Shown here one piece after another: positions 13,209 to 29,338 of a stretch of 44,996 nucleotides of DNA (positions are counted from its first letter, which is position 1; the number at the start of each line of letters is the position of its first letter). The stretch covers positions 1-44,996 of the forward strand of contig CAZEBV010000001.1 of NCBI GenBank assembly GCA_964510695.1, in the 5' to 3' direction. A model generated the notes under the pieces. It was not told the origin of the DNA. It saw only the letters and a program-made list of their open reading frames with translations, and searched no databases. The position numbers and the translations under genes are program-made. This DNA comes from an uncultured bacterium (GTDB lineage Bacteria; T1Sed10-126; CAZEBV01).

Positions 13209-15152
13209 TCAGTACGCGATCGTCACGGAATTGTCCTCGACCCGGACGTACTGGCTGTTCCCCGGGTCCGATCGGTAGAGCCCCGCGGCGGGGGTGCCGG
13301 ACCCGTCGTGATGGTAGTAGCGGACCTCGGAGGGGTCGTCGGACTTGCTCGTGAGATCAACCGGCACCAGCCGGGTGGCGGTGAACTCGGCGGAACGGTC
13401 GCGCTCGTCAATCATCTTCGCACCGGTCCGGTCGGCGATCACTCCACGTACCAACGCCACCGAGGTGCTGAACGGGTTTAAGCTGTGGTCCGGATGCCAG
13501 ACCAAGAACGGCCTGTTGCCGTCCTTGTCAACCAGCTCGATGTTGATGTTCAGGTTCGAGTCGGGGCGCAACTTGACGTCGCCTCCCCGGATCTCCGCCC
13601 CGCCCGTCGACAGGATCTCCCCGTCCATGTCGAGGTCGTCCGAGAGCACCACGCCCCCGGTCGTGTTCCCCACACGATTCATTCCCCGCCAGTTCGGCAC
13701 CGACAGGGACGGGTGCCATCGGTTGCCGACGATGAGCCAATCCCCCAGACCGCCGCCGAGTCTTAGGGGGTCGCCCGTGTTGCCGTCCAGCGCGATCGTG
13801 TTGGAGGCGATCAGGCCGTCGCCCCCGCCGGCAACCTCAACCCCCACGTCCAAAACGTCTACCTGGTTCCCGACGAACTGGACACGATCGCAGTTGATGT
13901 AGGCCGCATGCGTCCACTGACCCCGGATGTCGTTCCCCACGATCAGCACGTCCCGACCGCTCCCTCCGGAGCTATTCAGACGGATGTCGATGGCTTCGCC
14001 GAGGGTCAGACCGGCATCCGTCTGGACCATCTCGTTGCCCCGGATCAGGACGTCGACGTAATTGTTCTCGTTGAGACCCCGGCCGAGGATGATGAAATTG
14101 TTGCAGTTCGCGTCGGGCAGGGCGCGGTTGTTCTCGATGATCCAGTGGCCGTTCACCGCCCCGGGATTATCCCTGGTCGCCCCGACGTGGGAACCGTTTA
14201 CGTGTGTGCCAAAAACGCAGTTCCGGACGGTCACGTAGTCGCCCAGTCGAGTGTCGTTCGGCTCGGTCACCTGGAAGGCGACGTGCCGGTCGTAGCCGTG
14301 CGTGAACCGGCACCCGAGGACCTGCACACGCTCCCCGGAGACCCCGACCCCCCGGTCTCCCACGTCGTCAAAGTGGCAGTCAATCACGTCCACGTACTTC
14401 GACTCGCGCAGGATGATCACGGCGGACCCGCCGCTGTTGTGCTCGTGATAGGGGTGGGTCCGTGTGAAGTAGCACCGCCGGATCTGGACGTCCTCGGCGC
14501 GGCGGATGTAGCAGCCGTGTAGCCGCTTCACGGTGTCGTCCTGATTGTCCGTGTTCCCATGGTAGCCCAGGTCCTCGATCGTCACACGATTCGCCCGGGT
14601 CCCGCCCAGCTCCCCCAGCCGGAAGCCCCCGACGTCAGCCCCGTCCTCGGGCTTTATGATCGTGTTCTGGCGGCCCGCGCCGCGGATCGTGACGTCGTCG
14701 GCGGTGATGTCCAGCCACTGCGAGGTGCGAAACGTCCCCGGGAAAAGGCGGATCGTCTCGCCGTCGGAGAGCTTGCCGATGGCGTCCTCCAGGGAGGGGC
14801 CATCGTAGACCACGTAGTCCGCCTCGGGGAACAGCTGGGCGGGGATCTCCGTGGTCACGACCTTCGAGCCCTCGGAGAAGTCGATCAGGCTGCCGGTCGT
14901 GGACCGATAGACCCGATCCCGGACCAGGTGCCCGTTAACGTCCAGGTGGCACCGGCTGATCTCCCACTCGTCGGCGGCGTTCGGGTTGCGAATGTACGCC
15001 CAGAACGCCTCGGCGACCGTCGGGTCGTCCCCGGCCGTGTTCGCCGCCTCCTGGAAGGTACGATACGACTTGTCCGTGACGGCCGTGAGCGGAAGCGAGC
15101 CGGTCCCGGTTTCCTTGGTGCGCTCATAGACGTTGTCGTAGAACGCGGTCAC
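13209..15152 (-). CDS. Tailspike / depolymerase with a right-handed parallel beta-helix (pectate-lyase fold)
   Basis: Repeated beta-helix rungs (VTIRGAG, VTIEDLGYHGN, VQIRRCYF, VDVIDCHF, VQVLGCRF, VTVRNCVF, WIIENN, VLIRGNE, VLIVGNDI, VQFVGNQV, LIASNTI). Confidence 0.8.
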   Translation of the reverse strand: MTAFYDNVYERTKETGTGSLPLTAVTDKSYRTFQEAANTAGDDPTVAEAFWAYIRNPNAADEWEISRCHLDVNGHLVRDRVYRSTTGSLIDFSEGSKVVTTEIPAQLFPEADYVVYDGPSLEDAIGKLSDGETIRLFPGTFRTSQWLDITADDVTIRGAGRQNTIIKPEDGADVGGFRLGELGGTRANRVTIEDLGYHGNTDNQDDTVKRLHGCYIRRAEDVQIRRCYFTRTHPYHEHNSGGSAVIILRESKYVDVIDCHFDDVGDRGVGVSGERVQVLGCRFTHGYDRHVAFQVTEPNDTRLGDYVTVRNCVFGTHVNGSHVGATRDNPGAVNGHWIIENNRALPDANCNNFIILGRGLNENNYVDVLIRGNEMVQTDAGLTLGEAIDIRLNSSGGSGRDVLIVGNDIRGQWTHAAYINCDRVQFVGNQVDVLDVGVEVAGGGDGLIASNTIALDGNTGDPLRLGGGLGDWLIVGNRWHPSLSVPNWRGMNRVGNTTGGVVLSDDLDMDGEILSTGGAEIRGGDVKLRPDSNLNINIELVDKDGNRPFLVWHPDHSLNPFSTSVALVRGVIADRTGAKMIDERDRSAEFTATRLVPVDLTSKSDDPSEVRYYHHDGSGTPAAGLYRSDPGNSQYVRVEDNSVTIAY

Positions 15153-16178: not shown

Positions 16179-16196
16179 GATTTACGCGCGTAAATC
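16179..16196. repeat. Palindrome copy 3, an 18-bp perfect GATTTACGCGCGTAAATC
   Basis: Overlaps the parB TGA (16195..16197). Lies 22 nt upstream of ATG 16157. Confidence 0.85.
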
Positions 16197-17778
16197 AAAG
16201 GTGTTCGAGGACGTAGTCGCGGATCGTCTCGTGGTCCTCCGGGTGTTCGGCCGGGGCGTGGTCTGTTTCGGCCACGTCGGGGACGTCCTCCTGACCGGGC
16301 TCGAGCTCTTTCGCCTCGAGGTACTCCGTCCAGTCGCCCCGGGTCGCCTCCAGGGCCGCCTCGTGAATGGAGCGAAGGTCGGCCGCATCCAGGCTCATCG
16401 TGAACAGGGCCCGGACGCTGTCGTTGCGACTCGACAGGCCAAGGGCCGGGCCCCGGAAGGTCAACACGCGGTTCAGCAGCTGCTCGGGGTCGTAGTGCTC
16501 CTCGGCCCATTGGGTCAGGGTCTCGAAGACGGCCTCGGGGTCCTCCCCGTGATTGTTCTGGTTCATGATCGAGAACTTGTTGTAGCCCCTGTCGTTGTCC
16601 TCGGGTTCCCAGCCGATCGCGCCGGCCAGAAGCTCCTCGTAGAGGGGCTTGGTGAAGTGCGTGCTGTCCAGGGCGGCCACCAGCCGCTCCCACAGCGTGA
16701 TGCCGACCTCGCCGACGTTGACCCGATCGGCCAGCACCTCGGCGAAGTGATCCACGTAGTTGCCCTTGATCTTGGTCCGACAGTCGGCCACCCGTTCCGC
16801 GACGGTGCGCTCGGATTGGCCGACGGACTCATCATCGTCGCTGCTCATGTAGTCCTCGTAGAGCTGGCGGGTCTTTTGCCACTCCTGCTCGAGCTCGCCG
16901 TCGAACTGACCCGACTCGAGCATCTTGAACGCCCGCTCGATCCGAAAGGACACAAGCTCATCCGCCTTGATGGCCTCCCGCACTGCGTTGGCCTGCCGGC
17001 GATGCCAGCGCTGGACCTGGTCCGATCGGTCCGCGTTCGTGATCCATTCGTAGTCGGCGACCTCGTGGCGGTGCTCATCCTCGAAGGCCCGGACGTCGTC
17101 GGGGTCGAACAGGATCTCGTGGTCGAAGTCGACCGACTCGAGGGGCATGACCCGCGGATCCTCCACCAGAAACCGCCGGGTGTGCCGATCGAGGATCCGC
17201 GTCGGCACCTCCTCCTCCACGATCGACTCGGCCAGGTCCCCGACCAAATCCTTCCCCAGCGGCACGACCTCGAGCAGTTCCCGGGCGTGGGTCGAGGTCA
17301 GCTTCCCCTCGTTGACCAGCTGCCGGACGCGCCCCGGCAGATCCAGGAGGCTCATCCGCTGGGAGATGTACCCGGGGCTGTAGCCGACCTCCTCGGCGAG
17401 TGCTTCCTGGGTCTCATACCACTCGAGCAGCCCGGAGAGGGACTGCGCCTCCTCGATCGGGGAAAGATCGTCCCGTTCCACGTTCTCCAACAGCGCCAGC
17501 TTCGCGGCTTCCTCGTCGGAGAGGTCCCGCACGGTCGCCGGGACGGCCTCGAGGCCAACGGCGGCCGAAGCTCGGTAGCGACGCTCGCCGGCGACGATCT
17601 GGTACTCGGCGGATCCGTTGGGGGCCGGGCGCACCAGAAGCGGCTGCAGGATCCCGTGCTCCCGGATGCTCTCGACGAGCTCCTCGTGGGCCTGTTCCCC
17701 GAAGTGCTGGCGGGGCTGGTACGGGTTGGGCTCGAGGGCCTCGATCGGGACGTCCTTAATGGTGGTCTCGTTGCTCAT
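16195..17778 (-). CDS. parB: ParB/Spo0J-family protein (CTPase-type N-domain plus HTH) with a ~330-aa unrecognised C-terminal extension
   Basis: Box I LVESIREHGILQPLLVR, Box II GERRYRA, Box III LLENVERDDLSPIEEA, HTH TQEALAEEVGYSPGYISQRMSLLDLP. Stop codon abuts an 18-bp perfect palindrome. Confidence 0.85.
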   Translation of the reverse strand: MSNETTIKDVPIEALEPNPYQPRQHFGEQAHEELVESIREHGILQPLLVRPAPNGSAEYQIVAGERRYRASAAVGLEAVPATVRDLSDEEAAKLALLENVERDDLSPIEEAQSLSGLLEWYETQEALAEEVGYSPGYISQRMSLLDLPGRVRQLVNEGKLTSTHARELLEVVPLGKDLVGDLAESIVEEEVPTRILDRHTRRFLVEDPRVMPLESVDFDHEILFDPDDVRAFEDEHRHEVADYEWITNADRSDQVQRWHRRQANAVREAIKADELVSFRIERAFKMLESGQFDGELEQEWQKTRQLYEDYMSSDDDESVGQSERTVAERVADCRTKIKGNYVDHFAEVLADRVNVGEVGITLWERLVAALDSTHFTKPLYEELLAGAIGWEPEDNDRGYNKFSIMNQNNHGEDPEAVFETLTQWAEEHYDPEQLLNRVLTFRGPALGLSSRNDSVRALFTMSLDAADLRSIHEAALEATRGDWTEYLEAKELEPGQEDVPDVAETDHAPAEHPEDHETIRDYVLEHL

Positions 17779-18476: not shown

Positions 18477-18926
18477 TCACGCCACGGCTTCGCTTCGATC
18501 CATCGGTTCGACCCGGGTGCCGATGCCGTTGGCCTCCCCGGGTACCTTCCGCGAGCAGACCTTCAAAATCTGCGTGTCGTCCTCGTACAGCACGCCCTCC
18601 AGGGCATCGTGCAGGACCTTGATCGGGTTCCCGACGTCCGCCATCGGGACCCCGGCCAGCGCCTCGCGGCTTCGGTGGCATCGCTTCAGGACGACCGTGT
18701 GCCACAGCGCCACCGGGTCCGGCGTCGGCTCGGTGATGCCACCCTGGTACGTCACGATCTCGGCCACCTGCTCCTTGTAGGTCTCGAACTCGGAGCTCGG
18801 ATACATCCACGTCCGCCCGTCCTGGTGGGTCATCCGATACGCCGCGTTCTGGCTCAGGTAGGGGAAGGAAAACTCGGCCGGCTGGAGGACGTCCCCGTCA
18901 GGCACGGACCGACCCCTCCCCATCAA
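18477..18926 (-). CDS. rusA: RusA-family Holliday junction resolvase
   Basis: DVGNPIKVLHDALEGVLYEDDTQI matches the RusA D-x2-N-x2-K-x3-DAL-x6-DD-x-Q signature. Confidence 0.8.
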   Translation of the reverse strand: MMGRGRSVPDGDVLQPAEFSFPYLSQNAAYRMTHQDGRTWMYPSSEFETYKEQVAEIVTYQGGITEPTPDPVALWHTVVLKRCHRSREALAGVPMADVGNPIKVLHDALEGVLYEDDTQILKVCSRKVPGEANGIGTRVEPMDRSEAVA

Positions 18927-19464
18927 CCAGGGCGAAGGCCCCGTCGCGCTTCACGACGTCGTCCTGCTGGTCGGCCATCGCCTCCAGGACGCGGGCCACC
19001 CGGTCGGCTTCGTCGTTCATGGCCAGCCGGTCCGCGACCGCCCGGGCCGTGGTCATCTCCTGCCCGTTGATGATGAGCATGTCAGACAGCCACGCCCGGA
19101 TCCGCCGGGCGAGCCGTTCGTTGTCCTCGAGGATCTCGCCCGACCCGTTCATCGAGGCAGAAACCCCACGGTCTCGGGGGGGGGCGTCCTCCTGGTCCGT
19201 TTCGGGGTCGCCGTCCGCGTCGTCGAGGTCGACGTCCTCCTGGTCCCACATGAGAAGCTCGTTCGGGCTGACCTCGAGGGCGAAGCACAGCCGGACAAAC
19301 GAGTCCAGGGCCGGGGAGTACCGGCCACCCTCATACTGCGAAATGCTCGGGCCGCTCGTGCCGGCCACCGTCGCCAGCTCCCGTTGGCTCATTCCCAGGT
19401 CATCCCGGCGCTGTTTGAGCATCCTGGACACACGCCCCCGGGCGTCGAAATCGGGCGGGATCAT
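18898..19464 (-). CDS. XRE-family HTH transcriptional regulator with an acidic linker and a C-terminal domain
   Basis: LGMSQRELATVAGTSGPSISQYEGG HTH. Start placed at ATG 19464 (ATGA overlap with the SLT stop); GTG 19509 is an alternative. Confidence 0.75.
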   Translation of the reverse strand: MIPPDFDARGRVSRMLKQRRDDLGMSQRELATVAGTSGPSISQYEGGRYSPALDSFVRLCFALEVSPNELLMWDQEDVDLDDADGDPETDQEDAPPRDRGVSASMNGSGEILEDNERLARRIRAWLSDMLIINGQEMTTARAVADRLAMNDEADRVARVLEAMADQQDDVVKRDGAFALVDGEGSVRA

Positions 19465-20030
19465 CGACGAACCACCCTCCGCGTCCCTCGAAGTCGGGTC
19501 CTCAGCCACTCGATCCGCTCGGCGATCTGATGCTCATACCACGCCCCGGCCGGGCTGGGCCCACCGGCATACCAGCACCGAAGCGCATAGGCCCCGCACC
19601 ACTCCATGCAGTAGCGCAGATACCGCACCCCCTGACGGAGGGCGTAGGCGTCGTCGGTGTTGTAGCGATTCGACCGGTACGGGTGCCGGCTGACCGTCCG
19701 GTGGGCGATGGGTGTCACCTGCAGGACCCCGGCGGCGCCGGCATGGGACGTGCGGGGGTTGTAGCTGGACTCCTGCCCGGCCATCGCCACGATCAGAAGC
19801 GGGTCGAGGTCGTGCTTCTCGGCCACGTCTCTGATCATCCGCGACCACCGCAGGCTGTGGCGGGGCGTAAAGCCGGGGCGCTCGACTCGGACGGCCCGGG
19901 CGATGCGGTGGGTCTCACGGAAGCTCTCCCAGCCGTGCGGGTGGCCCTCCGACGGACTCGCCAGCCACGACGCGATCAGGAAAGCGACCGCGAGGGCCAG
20001 CATCACGTAGATCGACCAGTGTGTTCTCAT
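19461..20030 (-). CDS. Membrane-anchored lytic transglycosylase (SLT domain)
   Basis: N-terminal TM (IYVMLALAVAFLIASWLA) and GQESSYNP ... AGAAGVLQVTP catalytic motif. Start at ATG 20030 with GGGGAGG leader. The upstream part of the 353-aa track ORF is Arg/Gly/Pro-rich and implausible. Confidence 0.8.
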   Translation of the reverse strand: MRTHWSIYVMLALAVAFLIASWLASPSEGHPHGWESFRETHRIARAVRVERPGFTPRHSLRWSRMIRDVAEKHDLDPLLIVAMAGQESSYNPRTSHAGAAGVLQVTPIAHRTVSRHPYRSNRYNTDDAYALRQGVRYLRYCMEWCGAYALRCWYAGGPSPAGAWYEHQIAERIEWLRTRLRGTRRVVRR

Positions 20031-21672: not shown

Positions 21673-21833
21673 ACCACCCCTCCACTGCTCTCAAGGTGCG
21701 GGACTTCGACGTCGATCACCCGATACCAGCTCGGAAGGTCCTGCACGATGGGGTCACGGAAGCCGCGATCCCGGGCGTCGATGAGGACGTCGGACCGGCT
21801 CCACTTAGCCCGGGGGTAGTTGAGGGGCTTCAT
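21669..21833 (-). CDS. Hypothetical 54-aa protein
   Basis: Internal ATG 21833 forms an ATGA overlap with the ATPase stop. Its stop overlaps the next start. Confidence 0.45.
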   Translation of the reverse strand: MKPLNYPRAKWSRSDVLIDARDRGFRDPIVQDLPSWYRVIDVEVPHLESSGGVV

Positions 21834-23101
21834 GCTTCCGATCCCTCCTCGACCGGCTGGTGGCCGTCGTTGTAGTCGGCGGCCTCGCCTTCCTCGATCA
21901 CGACGCCCAGGTCGCCGGACTCGTCCACGACCTCGACCCACGCCTGAGCGCCGTATTGCTGGCACAGATCGTCGATGAGCCGGAGGTTCTCCCGGTCCCA
22001 ACGCGAGCCGTCCTTGATTCGGAGGACGCGGATGTCGGGGTTTTGGGCCATGGCGATGGCGACGGCGGCCCGCAGCTGTTCGGAGTCGGCCGCCTGCTCC
22101 AGGGGCTCGCCCTCGAAGGTCAAACCGTCCTCGGTGATCCCCAGGCCCTCCAGGGGAAGGTCGGCCGCCTCAATCGCGTCCTGCTTGGTCTGATCGAGGG
22201 ACTCGAGGTCCTCATCCAAGGACTGATGGCGCTGGCGGGCTGTCTCGAGTTCGGAGCGTTTCTCCTCGTAGGACTGGCGGGCCCGAACCTTCTCGTTGAT
22301 GTCCTCGGCCTGGTCGATCTGGTCCCGGATCTCACGGGCCTCCTCGCGGGTGGATTCGAGATTCGAGTCTGAAACCTTTTGCTCTCGAAGCTCTTTCAGA
22401 CGCTCCTCGAGCTCCCGGATCTCCTCACGGACGGCCTCCTGCTTCTTGATTTTCTTCTGAACCTCGTTGAGCTCATGGGAAAGCTCGGAGACCTTCACCG
22501 GCTCGTCGGGAAGGTCCTCCTCGTCGGGCGGGTCCATCTCCTCCAGGGCGCCCTCGAGTTTCTTGACGTCCCGGCCGGCGTCCCAACGCTTCTGGTAGAG
22601 CTCGTGCCGCTCGGTTTCGATGCGCTCCAGGTCGATCGGGAGGTCGATCGTCTGCAGCAGGGCCTCGCGCTTTTCGGCGGGGGTCATCCGCAAAAACGCC
22701 CCGGGGTCGAACATCAGGTCCCCGAGCTTGTCGTTCAACCAGGACTGCTCGGTGTCCTCGATCGGCGGGGTGTCTCCGACCGGCTCGATCGTAAGGCTCC
22801 CGTTGCCCTGGGTGCGCCACCGGCGGATGATCTTGTAGCGTCGCTGGCCGTTGCCGATCTCGACCTCGGTCTCGGCGGACGTCTCGCCCTCCCGGACCGG
22901 ACGATCGGGCACGGCCCGGCCCCCTCCCAGGGCGTAGTAGATCGCGTCCAGGACGGAGGATTTCCCTTGGCCGTTTCCGCCTGAGATCACCACGGCGCCG
23001 CTGTCGGGGTCCGGTTCGATCCCGATGGCCTTCACTCGCTTCACGTTTCGGATCTTGGTTCGGATCACTCGCATGCCGTCAACCTCTCCGTTCTCACTCA
23101 T
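21830..23101 (-). CDS. SMC/RecN-like coiled-coil AAA ATPase (recombination/replication accessory)
   Basis: Walker A GGNGQGKSSVLDAI, a long acidic coiled coil, and a C-terminal VLRIKDG Walker-B-like segment. Confidence 0.7.
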   Translation of the reverse strand: MSENGEVDGMRVIRTKIRNVKRVKAIGIEPDPDSGAVVISGGNGQGKSSVLDAIYYALGGGRAVPDRPVREGETSAETEVEIGNGQRRYKIIRRWRTQGNGSLTIEPVGDTPPIEDTEQSWLNDKLGDLMFDPGAFLRMTPAEKREALLQTIDLPIDLERIETERHELYQKRWDAGRDVKKLEGALEEMDPPDEEDLPDEPVKVSELSHELNEVQKKIKKQEAVREEIRELEERLKELREQKVSDSNLESTREEAREIRDQIDQAEDINEKVRARQSYEEKRSELETARQRHQSLDEDLESLDQTKQDAIEAADLPLEGLGITEDGLTFEGEPLEQAADSEQLRAAVAIAMAQNPDIRVLRIKDGSRWDRENLRLIDDLCQQYGAQAWVEVVDESGDLGVVIEEGEAADYNDGHQPVEEGSEA

Positions 23102-23131
23102 GGCGCGTCCCTCCGAGTCGTGCGGATTGGG

Positions 23132-23635
23132 TTACTCCTCATCGCTAAAGTCCAACCCCAGCTGCTCGCGGATGGACCGTTTGCTCTCATCGGCCGGTGG
23201 GGGGTCGGCGCTGTCGTCTTCCCCCTCATCGGGTGAAACCCCCTTTTCTGTATCTGTAGTACTTCTAGTACCTCCCCCGGACATCTGTGTCCGGGGGGTA
23301 TGGACATCTGTGTCCCCACCCCCCCGGACATGAGTGTCCGTCTGCCGCCAATCGGGCCGTGCGGGGTATATTCGGCGTTCATCGACCGCGCCTTCCCCAT
23401 CACGAAGGTAGGTCCGGTCCAGGTAGCCGAGCGACTCCATGTGCTCGATGTCCCGACGGATCGTCCGGACGCTGACGCCGAACTCCTCGGCGAAGGTTTC
23501 GTTGCCAACCCAGCAGTAACCTTCCTTCCGTGAGAGCGCCTCGATTCGGCCCCATAGCATCTTCTGTCGATCATTGAGGTCCTCCGCGTGATAGATCGGG
23601 GGTGATACCCAGCATCCGTATTGCTCGTCAGACAT
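23132..23635 (-). CDS. Putative replication initiator (N-terminal wHTH, low-complexity linker carrying iterons, acidic tail)
   Basis: wHTH ETFAEEFGVSVRTIRRDIEHMESLGYL. Three GGACA-N4-TGTCC repeats and an AT-rich tract lie inside the linker-coding part, the same layout as lambda O. Confidence 0.55.
   Translation of the reverse strand: MSDEQYGCWVSPPIYHAEDLNDRQKMLWGRIEALSRKEGYCWVGNETFAEEFGVSVRTIRRDIEHMESLGYLDRTYLRDGEGAVDERRIYPARPDWRQTDTHVRGGGDTDVHTPRTQMSGGGTRSTTDTEKGVSPDEGEDDSADPPPADESKRSIREQLGLDFSDEE
23244..23271. other. AT-rich tract flanking the iterons (candidate unwinding element)
   Basis: TTTTCTGTATCTGTAGTACTTCTAGTAC has 9 G/C of 28 nt by my count, in an otherwise GC-rich genome. Contains TAGTAC twice. 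Confidence 0.5.
23279..23339. repeat. Three iterons GGACA-N4-TGTCC (candidate replication origin)
   Basis: GGACATCTGTGTCC at 23279..23292 (extended to the 24-bp dyad CCCCCGGACATCTGTGTCCGGGGG) and at 23302..23315; GGACATGAGTGTCC at 23326..23339. Spacing is 23 and 24 bp. Confidence 0.65.
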
Positions 23636-23808
23636 CGGGTCCCTCCCGCAGCGCCCACAGTGAAAAACCGCTCATTTCCGGCTCCTTTCTACCCCACGTG
23701 TTGATCGACCGACCCACCCACAGGTCGGCTTTTCAGAGATCGAACATCCGGCCTGACCCCCTCTCAGGGGCCAGGTTGGACGCTCGCACGCCCACTCGGA
23801 GGAATGGA

Positions 23809-25230
23809 TCATGTGTCTTTGAGCTGGATCACCCCGTCCTCCGTCTGATACCCCACGTCCCCCTCGACCACGGCGTGAAGCGTGTCCGAGAGCCGCGAGA
23901 GGGCCGAATCCTTCATGTCGTGGGCTTCCATCGTTCGCCGGATGTCGACGATGCTGATGACGTCCGACTTGTCGATGTAGACCCCGACCGCCTGGAGGAC
24001 CGTGTTCATGTCCACGGTCTCGGGATCCTCGGAGGGTTCCTCGGGGGTTTCGCCCTCGACTTCCTGCTCTCCCGTGGGTTCCTCGGGGGTCCCTCCCGCC
24101 CCCTCCTGGGAGGTCAGGTGGTAGTGGCCGCACTCGCCGCACTCGTAATACCGGGTCTCCTGGCGGGCCTCGTTCCCACGATCGCGGGCCTCTTTCGCCC
24201 GTTCGAGGGCCTTCTCAGCGTCTTCCTCGTACTCGAAGGGGACCTTGCCGGTGGGGCAGGTGGCCTCACCGGACACGATCTCCGAGAGGCGTTCCTCGAT
24301 GGCCTTAATGACGGTCTTGCGCTGCTTGCTGGTCTGCTCGATCGACAGCGCCCGATACAGAAGCGTGGGATCGTCGGCGAGTCCGATTTCTTCCCGTGCG
24401 GGACCGGCGTTCTGGTCGACGATCTCGCGGGCCTGTTCCTCGAACAGATCGGGGGCGCTGGTGGAGGACTCCTCCTCGTCCGGGGCCTCGGCGTCCCCGT
24501 CGGACGCATCCTCCTCAGCGGCGTCCTCGTCGGTCTCAGACCCCATGTTTTTGAGGTCCTCGATCTGGCTCTCGACGCCGTTCCCGGAGGGCTCGTATTC
24601 AACGTCCCCCTCGTCGACCTCCTCCACGTCGTCGGGAACCATCGACTGTGCTTCGTCCGGGGTGTATAGGCCCTGGAGGACGTCCGGGAAGGCCTGGCGG
24701 AAAGCCCCGCCGATCGAGCGCCACTCAAGCATCTTGAGCGGATCCTGCCGCCAGTTGTATTTCTCAGTGAGGGGGATCACGCTCCCGTCCTGCTTGGTCT
24801 TGTACTTCTTCGCCCGGTTCAGGGTCCATGTTTCCGTGATCTCACTGAAACCGGCCCGCTTGACGTAGCAGGTGACCCGCATCGGGTCCCTCTCTCGCTC
24901 GATTCGCCAGTCCTCCAGCTCGCCCGTTTGAAGGGCCAGGGCGACCATCGTGCGCGGTTTCGTGGTGGGGTTTCCATTGATGGCGTCGATGCTCTGGAAA
25001 GCCTGCATGGGCGGAATCCCAAGCTCGCGGCCCTCCAGCATGATGACGATGGCCTGGGAGGCGTTTTTGATGCTGTCCGGGAGAAACCCCGACTGCACCA
25101 GGACGTCGCCGAACTTCTTGAGCTCGCCGACGCGGTCCGCCAGCTCGAAGACGTCGTGACTGTCGGGGAGCGCCAGTCCGGTTTCGTCGCCGGCTTCTTG
25201 CTGGATGGCCTTTGTGTTCTTGTTGCTCAT
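23809..25230 (-). CDS. RecT-like single-strand annealing protein fused to an acidic linker, a C4 zinc ribbon and a C-terminal domain
   Basis: The N-terminal ~200 aa (IVIMLEGRELGIPPMQAFQSIDAINGNPT...) resemble RecT-type annealases. Sits immediately after the YqaJ exonuclease. CPTGK...CGECGHYH cluster. Start at ATG 25230 with GAGGAG SD. Confidence 0.6.
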   Translation of the reverse strand: MSNKNTKAIQQEAGDETGLALPDSHDVFELADRVGELKKFGDVLVQSGFLPDSIKNASQAIVIMLEGRELGIPPMQAFQSIDAINGNPTTKPRTMVALALQTGELEDWRIERERDPMRVTCYVKRAGFSEITETWTLNRAKKYKTKQDGSVIPLTEKYNWRQDPLKMLEWRSIGGAFRQAFPDVLQGLYTPDEAQSMVPDDVEEVDEGDVEYEPSGNGVESQIEDLKNMGSETDEDAAEEDASDGDAEAPDEEESSTSAPDLFEEQAREIVDQNAGPAREEIGLADDPTLLYRALSIEQTSKQRKTVIKAIEERLSEIVSGEATCPTGKVPFEYEEDAEKALERAKEARDRGNEARQETRYYECGECGHYHLTSQEGAGGTPEEPTGEQEVEGETPEEPSEDPETVDMNTVLQAVGVYIDKSDVISIVDIRRTMEAHDMKDSALSRLSDTLHAVVEGDVGYQTEDGVIQLKDT

Positions 25231-25244
25231 GCCGATCACTCCTC

Positions 25245-26243
25245 TCAGTAGATGCGCGGATAGCGGGACTCGGTGGGCTCCTGCAGGTACTCCTCGTAGA
25301 GGTCGGGGTAATCCTGCTCGAATTGCTTGCTGTCGAATCGCTCATAGACGCGATGCACCTGGGTCACCTTTCGGGTTTCCCCGCGGACGTCCACGGCGAC
25401 TTTTTTGTCCTCGCCCGCGACCTCCATGATCCGGTTTTTGATGGCGTCCAGCTCATCCTCGGCCTCGTCCTTTTGCTCCTTGGCGTCGTCGTATCGCTGG
25501 ATCAACTCCGCCATCTCCCCGGCCTCCTCACCCTCCATTTTCCGCGGTTCGTCGCGGCTGGTGAGGTCGGGGAACCGATCCATGATGTGCTCGCGGGCCG
25601 CATCCGATCCGTCGACGTCGGGGGGCTCTCGGTCGATCACGCTCTGGACGAACGCCTGTTCCTCCCGCTCGATTCGTTCAATCAGCTCGTCGTCGATGGG
25701 GACTCGCCGGATCTGCAGGTCGTGGGACCCGATCAGCGCGGCCACCCAGGCGTGGTCGTAGCCCTTGACGGCACACTGGTGATGCACCTGGACGATCGTT
25801 CGGGCGGGTACGATTTCGGATCCCTCGGACCCGAACCACTCATCCTTCAGCCGGACGCTGGTGTTCTTGACCTCCAGGACCCCCACGCCGTCGGGGTGGT
25901 CGATGATTTCCCGGTCGACGTTGGCGGTCATCCAGTCATGCTCCTCGTGCTGGAGGACCTGGTGGCGGTTCTGGATCGTCCAGCCCATCTCCTCCGCGGC
26001 CAGCCGGGCGATAACATCCTCGATCTCGGTGCCGACGCGAACGGCCATGTTGTCGCTGAGGTCCTCGGGCTCCAGCTCGCCCGTCTTTTCGAGCCAAAGC
26101 TGGTACTCGGACTTCCAGGGGTTCACCCCGAGGACCGCGCTGGCGTCCGACGACCCGATGCGCGGATTGTCGGGGGACCCGGAACGGGCCCTGAGCCATT
26201 CGTCGTGAGTCATCTCCTGCCGGTTTCCGAGGGTGCGAGTCAT
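25245..26243 (-). CDS. YqaJ/lambda-Exo-type recombination exonuclease
   Basis: IGSSDASAVLGVNPWKSEYQLWLEKTG ... GVLEVKN matches the YqaJ family. Confidence 0.8.
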   Translation of the reverse strand: MTRTLGNRQEMTHDEWLRARSGSPDNPRIGSSDASAVLGVNPWKSEYQLWLEKTGELEPEDLSDNMAVRVGTEIEDVIARLAAEEMGWTIQNRHQVLQHEEHDWMTANVDREIIDHPDGVGVLEVKNTSVRLKDEWFGSEGSEIVPARTIVQVHHQCAVKGYDHAWVAALIGSHDLQIRRVPIDDELIERIEREEQAFVQSVIDREPPDVDGSDAAREHIMDRFPDLTSRDEPRKMEGEEAGEMAELIQRYDDAKEQKDEAEDELDAIKNRIMEVAGEDKKVAVDVRGETRKVTQVHRVYERFDSKQFEQDYPDLYEEYLQEPTESRYPRIY

Positions 26244-27878: not shown

Positions 27879-28085
27879 CTACCCCTGGAGTTCAAGCTCC
27901 TGTTTCAGGATTCGTTGCCAGGGCTTCGAGGGGGTGGCGTATCCGGTGAGCCACTTGCTAATTCGAGGCTGGTCTGTGTCGAGCTGGTCGGCAAGCTCCT
28001 CCTGGGTGAGACCGTTTTCGTCCATGTAATCTTGGATGGCTTCGCTCCAGTCGATCTCGTCGGCCATCGTGGACTCCGTTGACAT
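27879..28085 (-). CDS. Cro/CI-type HTH protein (Cro-like regulator or excision factor)
   Basis: NGLTQEELADQLDTDQPRISKWLTG HTH. GGGAGG SD. Divergent from the integrase gene. Confidence 0.7.
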   Translation of the reverse strand: MSTESTMADEIDWSEAIQDYMDENGLTQEELADQLDTDQPRISKWLTGYATPSKPWQRILKQELELQG

Positions 28086-28166: not shown

Positions 28167-28216
28167 CTTTTACGCGCTGTTTTGTGGGGGTTTCCGGGTG
28201 GGACTCGGTGATCGCC

Positions 28217-29338
28217 ATGAAGGGAAGCATCCAGCAGATCGAGCGTAAGACCAAGACCGTCCACCGTGCCCGCATCGACGTCCCGTCGCCGGACGAGGAC
28301 CGAAAGCAGATCAGCAAGACCTTCGACGAGGAGGGGGATGCGACGACGTGGCTGATCCAGAAGAACCACGAGATCAGCACGGGGACGCTGGTGACGCCCT
28401 CCGAGATGTCGATGAAGCAGTACCTCCAGAAGTGGATGGAGGATGAGAGGGACGCGATTCGCCCCAAGACCCACCAGAAGCGCCAGTGGGCCATGAACCA
28501 CATCCTGCCCGCCCTGGGGCACGTGGAGGTCGGGGATCTTACGCCCTACCACCTACAGACGCTTTACCAGGACAGGCTGGAGGACCTCGCGCCCAGCTCG
28601 GTGAAGAACCTGCACGAGATCCTGCACAACGCCCTGCGAAACGCCTGCCGGCTGGAGATCATCGCGGACAACCCGGCGAAGAACGTGTCCCCGCCCGCGA
28701 AGCCGGACCCGGATTTCACGGTCCTCGACGGCGAGCAGATCGAACGCTACCTGTCAGCCGCCCGGGGCCGGCGGTACTACCCCGTGCTTCTGACGCTCGT
28801 GATGACCGGCCTCCGGCGCGGCGAGGCGCTGGGGCTACGGTGGGAGGACGTCTCGCTGGATGAGGCGAGCCTGAGCGTGCGTAAGACGCTGGGGCGCACC
28901 GACGAGGGGCTGGGGTTGGGCGATGTGAAGACCGCCTCCAGCCGGCGCTCTGTGGCGCTCATGGAGGCCAACGTAAAGGCGCTTCGGGACTGGAAACAGC
29001 GCCAGCTTCAGGAGCGTTTGAACCACCCGGACCTGGCCGGGCGCTCCGAGCTGGTCTATACGACCTCGGAGGGTAATCCCGTCCACCCTCGAAGCCTGCT
29101 GAGGTCCCACAACAAGGTCGTCGATCAGGCCGACGTCCCCGACGTCACGATCCACGACCTGCGCCACACGCACGCCACGCAGATGCTCCGGAATGGGACC
29201 CACCCGAAGGTCGTCCAGGAGCGGCTGGGACACTCCCGGATCGAGGTCACGATGGACACCTACAGCCACGTTTTGCCCGGGATGCAGGAGGACGCGGTGG
29301 AGGCGCTTGAACAGTCGATGGGGGCGGATACGGTATGA
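28217..29338 (+). CDS. int: Tyrosine integrase
   Basis: Catalytic-region motifs LLTLVMTGLRRGE, HDLRHTHAT, LGHSRIEVTMDTYSH. Start set at ATG 28217 (MKGSIQQIERK). Confidence 0.9.
   Translation: MKGSIQQIERKTKTVHRARIDVPSPDEDRKQISKTFDEEGDATTWLIQKNHEISTGTLVTPSEMSMKQYLQKWMEDERDAIRPKTHQKRQWAMNHILPALGHVEVGDLTPYHLQTLYQDRLEDLAPSSVKNLHEILHNALRNACRLEIIADNPAKNVSPPAKPDPDFTVLDGEQIERYLSAARGRRYYPVLLTLVMTGLRRGEALGLRWEDVSLDEASLSVRKTLGRTDEGLGLGDVKTASSRRSVALMEANVKALRDWKQRQLQERLNHPDLAGRSELVYTTSEGNPVHPRSLLRSHNKVVDQADVPDVTIHDLRHTHATQMLRNGTHPKVVQERLGHSRIEVTMDTYSHVLPGMQEDAVEALEQSMGADTV

Follow-up and report, generated by a model that had tools for sequence, protein, structure and literature searches.

The 44,996-bp stretch of DNA analysed here (the window) is contig C1 of a 2.26-Mb assembly, taken whole and without host flanks, and represents the genome of a temperate tailed phage with a GC content of 65%. 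Our subject is a gene on its minus strand (23132-23635) which encodes a protein of 167 amino acids (aa) with a winged helix-turn-helix (wHTH) domain, a short form of the lambda-O-like initiators of replication (replisome organizers). Inside this gene lie an array of three dyad-symmetric repeats (iterons) and, next to it, an AT-rich tract, a layout that points to an origin of replication.

Iterons and an AT-rich tract within a putative initiator gene

The repeat, GGACA-N4-TGTCC, occurs in three exact copies that are spaced 23 and 24 bp from start to start and all fall within 61 bp. Iteron 1 (core at 23279-23292, GGACATCTGTGTCC) is the copy nearest the AT-rich tract and extends to a perfect 24-bp dyad (23274-23297, CCCCCGGACA-TCTG-TGTCCGGGGG). 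Iteron 2 (23302-23315) has the same core sequence (GGACATCTGTGTCC), and iteron 3 (23326-23339, GGACATGAGTGTCC) is the first in gene order. Because iteron 1 is followed by a tract of six G and iteron 3 is preceded, on the plus strand, by a tract of six C, the whole array (23278-23340) forms a larger imperfect palindrome with iteron 2 at its centre. In gene coordinates the iterons start at +297, +321 and +344, and they span codons 99-120 of the minus-strand open reading frame (ORF). Taken as a single strand, the segment 23236-23345 has a far stronger propensity to fold than shuffled sequence has (z = -6.7).

The array is a local feature of this gene. GGACA-N4-TGTCC has no further exact copy in the contig (44,996 bp) or elsewhere in the 2.26-Mb assembly, where a reversed control pattern occurred twice; GGACA/TGTCC half-sites are densest at the array, which has 6 per 100 bp where the contig averages 0.3. 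The lone copy of the dyad with one mismatch in the contig (19293-19306, GGACAAACGAGTCC) lies inside the ORF of a helix-turn-helix (HTH) regulator (18898-19509) and is probably meaningless, 2.4 such copies being expected by chance. In gene order, iteron 3 is translated as D-T-H-V, iteron 2 as D-T-D-V and iteron 1 as R-T-Q-M-S. Since the frame of iteron 1 differs from that of the other two copies, the repeat is a feature of the DNA and not a protein repeat. Promoter-like hexamers were absent from 22800-24000, neither a terminator-like site nor a credible Rfam match was found in the region, and no DnaA boxes were found near the array.

Seven nucleotides from iteron 1 lies the AT-rich tract (23244-23271), a candidate DNA-unwinding element of 28 nt with 9 G/C (32% GC), which is among the three lowest-GC windows of that length in the contig (lowest 0.04%). 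The tract corresponds to codons 122-131 of the initiator gene. GC content at third codon positions (GC3) falls to 0.30 in codons 121-140, compared with 0.85 on either side and about 0.86 across the phage genes; synonymous sites have therefore been kept AT-rich against the codon bias. On the gene strand the tract also contains short internal repeats: two copies of GTACTA at a distance of 9 nt, and the pair ACAGAT/ACAGAA at a distance of 6 nt. The first of this pair, ACAGAT, also occurs as spacer plus flank in iterons 1 and 2. All of the sequence features on which the first-pass annotation of this DNA had built its proposal of an origin, that is, the three copies at 23279, 23302 and 23326 with their 23-24 bp spacing, the extension of the first copy to a 24-bp dyad and the adjacent 28-nt tract with 9 G/C, proved to be exact.

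The encoded protein has the N-terminal domain expected of a replisome organizer. It matches the Pfam family HTH_36 (PF13730) with E=1.2e-11 and 44.6 bits against a cut-off of 25. At E ≤ 0.01 the only other Pfam families reported are HTH_DeoR and HTH_11, and Phage_rep_O (PF04492), the family of lambda O proper, is not matched at this threshold. Matches in PHROG are to the replication-initiation and O-like families 270, 428, 678 and 391, the aligned part being the N-terminal portion of profiles with 300-450 positions. HTH_36 and these O-like families are thus all that ties the protein to lambda O. In the AlphaFold2 model the wHTH domain occupies residues ~10-91 (coding region 23363-23608, minus strand, for residues 10-91) with a predicted local distance difference test score (pLDDT) above 95. 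It consists of helices at residues 22-38, 45-52 and 56-69 and wing strands at 72-78 and 84-91; the recognition helix (56-69) carries R57, its second residue, and R61. The remainder of the model is disordered, which places the iterons as well as the AT-rich tract in a tolerant linker, Gly/Thr/Asp-rich in composition.

A fold search with the model returned generic wHTH neighbours at E ~1e-3, including the DnaD N-domain, MarR and TFE wHTH proteins. Its neighbours also included the N-domains of PDB entries 4pt7, 4pql and 5kbj, with a TM score of ~0.5 by target length; these entries are titled 'initiator' or 'Rep-DNA complex' and we take them to be staphylococcal plasmid RepA. A sequence search of the PDB with the initiator gave nothing meaningful.

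Beyond the linker, the protein ends in a disordered acidic tail (~residues 132-167, 23135-23243 on the minus strand) with a pLDDT of 53-61, a short helix at 155-158 and a phage-typical GC3 of 0.85. Only the first helix of the C-terminal domain seen in the relatives described below has a counterpart here, in the final structured segment KRSIREQLGLDF; the domain is otherwise missing. The lambda-O-like shape that had been proposed for this protein therefore stands for the N-terminal wHTH domain and the linker only, as the acidic tail is not equivalent to the C-terminal domain of lambda O, which is missing here. The tail contains the hexapeptide QLGLDF (23147-23164), which conforms to the QLxLx[LF] pattern of beta-clamp-binding motifs in bacteria; among 150 relatives a QLxLxF motif is confined to the present protein, and a clamp-binding function for it is speculation.

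The same anatomy in distant relatives

A full HMMER scan identified 3077 distant relatives of the initiator at E ≤ 0.001, the best with 42% identity and most of them 200-310 aa long. A word-indexed search of 5.8 billion proteins returned no close homologue, and no close relatives were found in IMG/VR with the single protein as query or in metagenome contigs with the initiator and its relative P0006 as queries. Genome contigs searched with P0006 gave only one weak, unrelated match, and neither megablast of the module against phage records nor an IMG/VR search with the neighbouring ATPase returned a match.

Among annotated phages, tblastn matched genes labelled 'replication initiation protein' in Staphylococcus phages 77, 85 and phiSa2wa, Flavonifractor phage Cormatin and Erysipelothrix SE-1. 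The gene that follows the initiator encodes a DnaC-like loader in phages 77 and phiSa2wa, a DnaB-like helicase in Cormatin and a hypothetical protein in SE-1. The 187-aa 'replication initiation protein' of Arthrobacter phage Vibaki was also considered and was rejected as unrelated and without repeats. Short organizers are not unique to the present phage, since the family includes members of 145-178 aa whose C-terminal peptide motifs are different ones. Three of these (P0043, P0045 and P0059) share the terminal motif F-x-Q-R-[DN]-Y-x(3-4)-[LM]-E, which may be a short linear motif in place of the C-terminal domain.

For comparison at the DNA level we used 80 homologous loci from IMG/VR (L008-L087). 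Recurring 9-mers, 10-60 nt apart, were found at +200 to +520 of the gene in 77 of 78 loci as opposed to 9% of 1150 control windows. The core GACA-N4-TGTC itself occurs at +240 to +480 nt in 20 of the 80 loci, 19 of which have at least two copies, with a spacing of mostly 22-24 nt and also 33, 39 or 45 nt; only 4 copies are found in the remaining 443 kb of these loci. Even details outside the core recur: the spacer of one relative (L022) is identical to that of the present phage (TGACACAGATGTCA), and the gene-strand flank TGTCCATACCCC of iteron 2 is found again in two others (L024 and L057). Other clades have other cores, for example TATTGAC in staphylococcal phages.

The surroundings of the sites are shared as well. 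In the relatives the sites are flanked by G/C tracts, and an AT-rich run (ATAATA...) begins 5-9 nt past the last site, as it does here. Mean GC content dips by 0.10-0.12 (~6 standard errors) at +375 to +405 in 50 non-redundant relatives, with the minimum in the present gene at +377. Staphylococcus phage 77 and Flavonifractor phage Cormatin have repeats with a period of 24 nt at the same gene position, and repeat arrays followed by an AT-rich dip at the matching offset were seen in the Staphylococcus, Flavonifractor and Erysipelothrix phages inspected. The relatives that share the GACA core, the G/C flanks and the AT tract come from loci ranging from 24% to 63% GC. Given the shared repeats, position, flanks and GC dip, the anatomy is homologous and does not result from chance resemblance. 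HTH_36, the O-like PHROG families and the homologous repeats with an AT dip at the same gene position all agree with the lambda O/ori layout that the first-pass annotation had suggested. Absence of the repeats from homologous genes would, in its view, have spoken against an origin; repeat arrays are present in 77 of 78 loci, and one quarter of the relatives have the GACA core.

The arrays have also left a trace in the proteins. Just past the wHTH domain, relatives carry the repeated peptides DKNV, GQKCP and TKMS, one for each reading frame of GGACAAAAATGTCC, whose half-sites are those of the present array. After these peptides (P0002-P0150) comes a stretch rich in Asn and Thr (NNTSxNNT), which is the AT-rich tract in translation.

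The protein and its sites co-vary, as the first-pass annotation had proposed to examine. An arginine in the R57 column is found in all 16 non-redundant genes of the GACA type versus 8 of the 37 others (Fisher 5e-8, uncorrected for relatedness), and all 16 likewise have an arginine in the R61 column. The GACA label changes ~11 times on the tree. On the best tree, taken regardless of branch support and built from an alignment that included column 57, 11 independent pairs could be formed, of which 9 go in the expected direction, none in the opposite direction and 2 are ties (p=0.004, sign test). This tracking of the GACA core by Arg57 gives moderate support to the view that the encoded protein would itself read the GACA sites.

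Gene neighbourhood and host link

The initiator gene is embedded in a recombination module. Upstream on the same strand is a gene for a 476-aa RecT-like protein (23809-25239, minus strand) and, beyond it, one for a RecE/YqaJ exonuclease (25245-26243), and downstream of the initiator gene lies a Rad50/SMC-like ATPase of family phrog_1499 (21830-23101, minus strand). The middle and C-terminal part of the RecT-like protein matches PHROGs of unknown function, phrog_1983 at residues 275-326 and phrog_3424 at residues 326-381, which suggests a fusion protein.

The phrog_1499 ATPase is widespread in phages of Arthrobacter, Gordonia, Corynebacterium and Streptococcus. Its homologue in Glutamicibacter phage BIM BV-113 (L097) stands between RecT and SSB in an exonuclease-RecT-ATPase-SSB module, and among its relatives in annotated phages we found no linkage to O-like genes. 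The ATPase is probably a component of the recombination module rather than of the origin module.

Further away, the window encodes a Cro-like HTH protein (27879-28085, minus strand; recognised from its sequence only, with no family match), a tyrosine integrase (28184-29338, plus strand) and, 5.5 kb from the repeats, a ParB-like protein (16195-17778) without a ParA partner. An HNH endonuclease, RusA, a metallopeptidase, the large terminase, the portal protein and baseplate J are encoded as well, and in its remaining content the contig resembles a complete temperate phage genome. A minus-strand ORF at 13209-15152, located between the ParB-like gene and the structural genes, encodes a 647-aa protein with no Pfam or PHROG match. 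Its sole match, a weak one, is to a parallel beta-helix domain (TIGR03805, E=8e-9, below cut-off), and the protein could be a depolymerase or of tailspike type, sited away from the tail genes.

The phage is attributed to its host by binning only. The assembly encodes a full-length DnaB (329 bits), and the binned host is therefore a bacterium; its phylum is represented by 12 genomes of a single order in a reference set of 199,900 species. None of the 11 other genomes of the phylum has a homologue of the initiator, and no copy was found in the order or phylum outside the present assembly. The contig has no terminal overlap indicating circularity, and the 91-nt stretch around the candidate phage attachment site (attP) has no second copy in the assembly and hence provides no host link.

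Interpretation, alternatives and comparison with known systems

We predict that the initiator gene contains, in its linker-coding part, the replication origin of the phage, in the manner of lambda O and SPP1 G38P, and we regard this reading as probable. An origin inside the initiator gene is a layout already well known, and what is unusual here is the missing helicase-recruiting half. In lambda, the origin with its iterons and AT-rich tract occupies the middle part of gene O; it can function with three iterons, and unwinding requires at least two of them plus the AT tract (PMC7466680). HHpred resolves lambda O into HTH_36, ori-lambda and Phg_2220_C (PMC5509034), and lambda P, encoded by the next gene after O, brings the host DnaB to the origin (PMC5499656). 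The present gene resembles this system in having its predicted origin where the N-terminal DNA-binding domain meets the remainder of the protein, with dyad iterons bordered by G/C tracts and then an AT-rich tract in the direction of the gene, as well as in its HTH_36 N-domain and its matches to O-like PHROG families. Phg_2220_C is the part of lambda O that binds P. Both this domain and a P-like gene are absent here, whereas lambda has both; lambda also has four iterons where the present gene has three, and the host here is not an enterobacterium.

Similar origins are found in phages of Firmicutes such as SPP1, whose G38P binds oriL inside gene 38, and 80alpha, whose ORF20 could not be complemented in trans, the origin being probably inside the initiator gene (PMC5499656). 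The present gene shares with them the origin within the organizer gene, and two of its relatives have a G39P-like loader downstream. Staphylococcus phages 77, 85 and phiSa2wa are direct tblastn matches and have repeats with a 24-nt period at the same gene position. In contrast to the present phage, the SPP1/80alpha type has a DnaC-like loader, or a loader and a helicase, adjoining the organizer, its iterons are of the TATTGAC type and its organizers measure 250-300 aa and include a C-terminal domain.

Outside phages, the RepA_N initiators, such as RepA of the staphylococcal plasmid pSK41, use an N-terminal DnaD-like wHTH domain to bind iterons in the central part of the rep gene, and the C-terminal domain of RepA recruits primosome proteins of the host. 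The fold neighbours 4pt7, 4pql and 5kbj link the present protein to this group, although there is no match to the sequence family and the replicons are those of plasmids and not of phages. DopC, a domesticated O-like protein of Cellvibrionales, has kept HTH_36 and lost the iterons (PMC5509034). Like the present protein, DopC has an HTH_36 N-domain without Phg_2220_C; it differs in that it is not an origin, while the present gene keeps perfect iterons and an AT tract.

At such an origin, dimers of the wHTH domain would occupy the three dyads, and the recognition helix would read the GACA half-sites through Arg57 and Arg61. The bound dyads would assemble into an O-some-like nucleoprotein complex, and strain from this complex would melt the adjacent AT-rich tract, probably aided by transcription of the early operon through the gene. 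For helicase loading, the acidic tail is one candidate for bringing the host DnaB; alternatively, replication might soon be handed to the RecE/RecT/Rad50-like/RusA recombination machinery of the phage.

Several observations weigh against an origin at this site. No match to DnaB_C, IstB (DnaC-like), lambda-P-like or Toprim families was found on the contig, as the first-pass annotation had anticipated in recognising no helicase, primase or loader gene, a statement borne out for the families searched. Phg_2220_C (PF09524) has no match in the initiator or anywhere in the assembly, and no replication enzyme was found among the other early ORFs scanned. In 44 non-redundant relatives, the gene directly downstream matches DnaB_C in 18, IstB in 8, G39P in 2 and Toprim_2 in 2 (tallies may overlap); here, that position of the relatives' helicase or loader is filled by the Rad50/SMC-like ATPase, and the replication module might be incomplete. 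With no helicase, loader or primase gene and no Phg_2220_C, the host DnaB must come some other way. In addition, GC skew along the contig gives no origin signal, without a turning point at 23 kb, and the AT-rich tract is short (~30 nt) and no longer exceptional when windows of 60-100 nt are considered. In the absence of close relatives, the conservation comparison addresses the anatomy of the family and not the exact sites, and the independent-pair test restricted to well-supported branches is underpowered, with 3 pairs only, on a poorly resolved tree.

One way in which the host helicase could be reached would be a minimal stand-alone organizer, made up of the wHTH domain, the origin-encoding linker and the acidic tail, in which QLGLDF would draw the host replisome straight to the opened origin and so replace both Phg_2220_C and a phage loader or helicase. 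We consider this version, which is read from the sequence of the tail, unlikely. Something comparable is known of TrfA, the initiator of the iteron plasmid RK2.

The most serious rival to a working origin is a vestigial one, in which the gene is what is left, after truncation, of a full-length organizer that has lost both the domain recruiting the helicase and its partner gene, and the iterons and the AT tract persist without firing, while replication starts from another site or depends on recombination through RecE/RecT, the Rad50-like ATPase and RusA. The loss of the C-terminal domain, of which the first helix alone can be aligned, would fit such decay, as would the lack of a helicase or loader gene, unlike in most relatives, and the full recombination module that flanks the initiator gene. 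Three dyads that are still perfect, strongly non-optimal codons kept in the AT tract, and an intact ORF whose tail has a GC3 of 0.85 and which keeps a tidy spacing to the next gene speak against decay. The other short members of 145-178 aa have C-terminal motifs of their own, and the contig has the look of a complete temperate phage in other respects. We therefore judge a vestigial origin to be improbable.

A regulatory role is less probable still. The dyads could serve as operators to which the wHTH protein, or some other phage regulator, binds; they would then control expression of the downstream genes as an intragenic roadblock, by autoregulation or by titration, with no function as an origin. 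Palindromes of 14 bp placed 23-24 bp apart do resemble operator arrays, and wHTH proteins are often repressors, MarR-type regulators being among the results of the fold search. Yet the sites are intragenic, with no promoter-like sequence nearby and no copies at phage promoters. Operators would leave unexplained the AT tract at its conserved offset and the assignment of the protein to PHROG initiator families, and what follows the gene in relatives is helicases and loaders, not regulated cargo. We give this explanation little credit.

The dyads could also be centromere or docking sites for the orphan ParB-like protein or for another DNA-binding protein: a ParB without ParA is encoded 5.5 kb away and parS sites are palindromic, but across relatives the GACA core co-varies with the recognition helix of the wHTH protein whose gene contains it. 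We consider this proposal highly improbable. Finally, a protein-level repeat or low-complexity linker without any function in the DNA, to which the Gly/Thr/Asp-rich disordered linker encoded by the region might point, is effectively refuted by the frame analysis, with copies in two frames here and the family peptides DKNV, GQKCP and TKMS in three, and by the GC3 of the AT tract, which opposes the codon bias of the genome.

The origin predicted within the initiator gene has several implications. It places a probable origin for a phage attributed, by binning, to a phylum with 12 reference genomes, and it would extend the lambda-O-type design of an origin inside the initiator to a genome of 65% GC. 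The peptide footprints DKNV, GQKCP and TKMS could serve the automatic annotation of embedded phage origins. The missing domain and the missing loader, in turn, pose the question of how short organizers load the helicase of their host.

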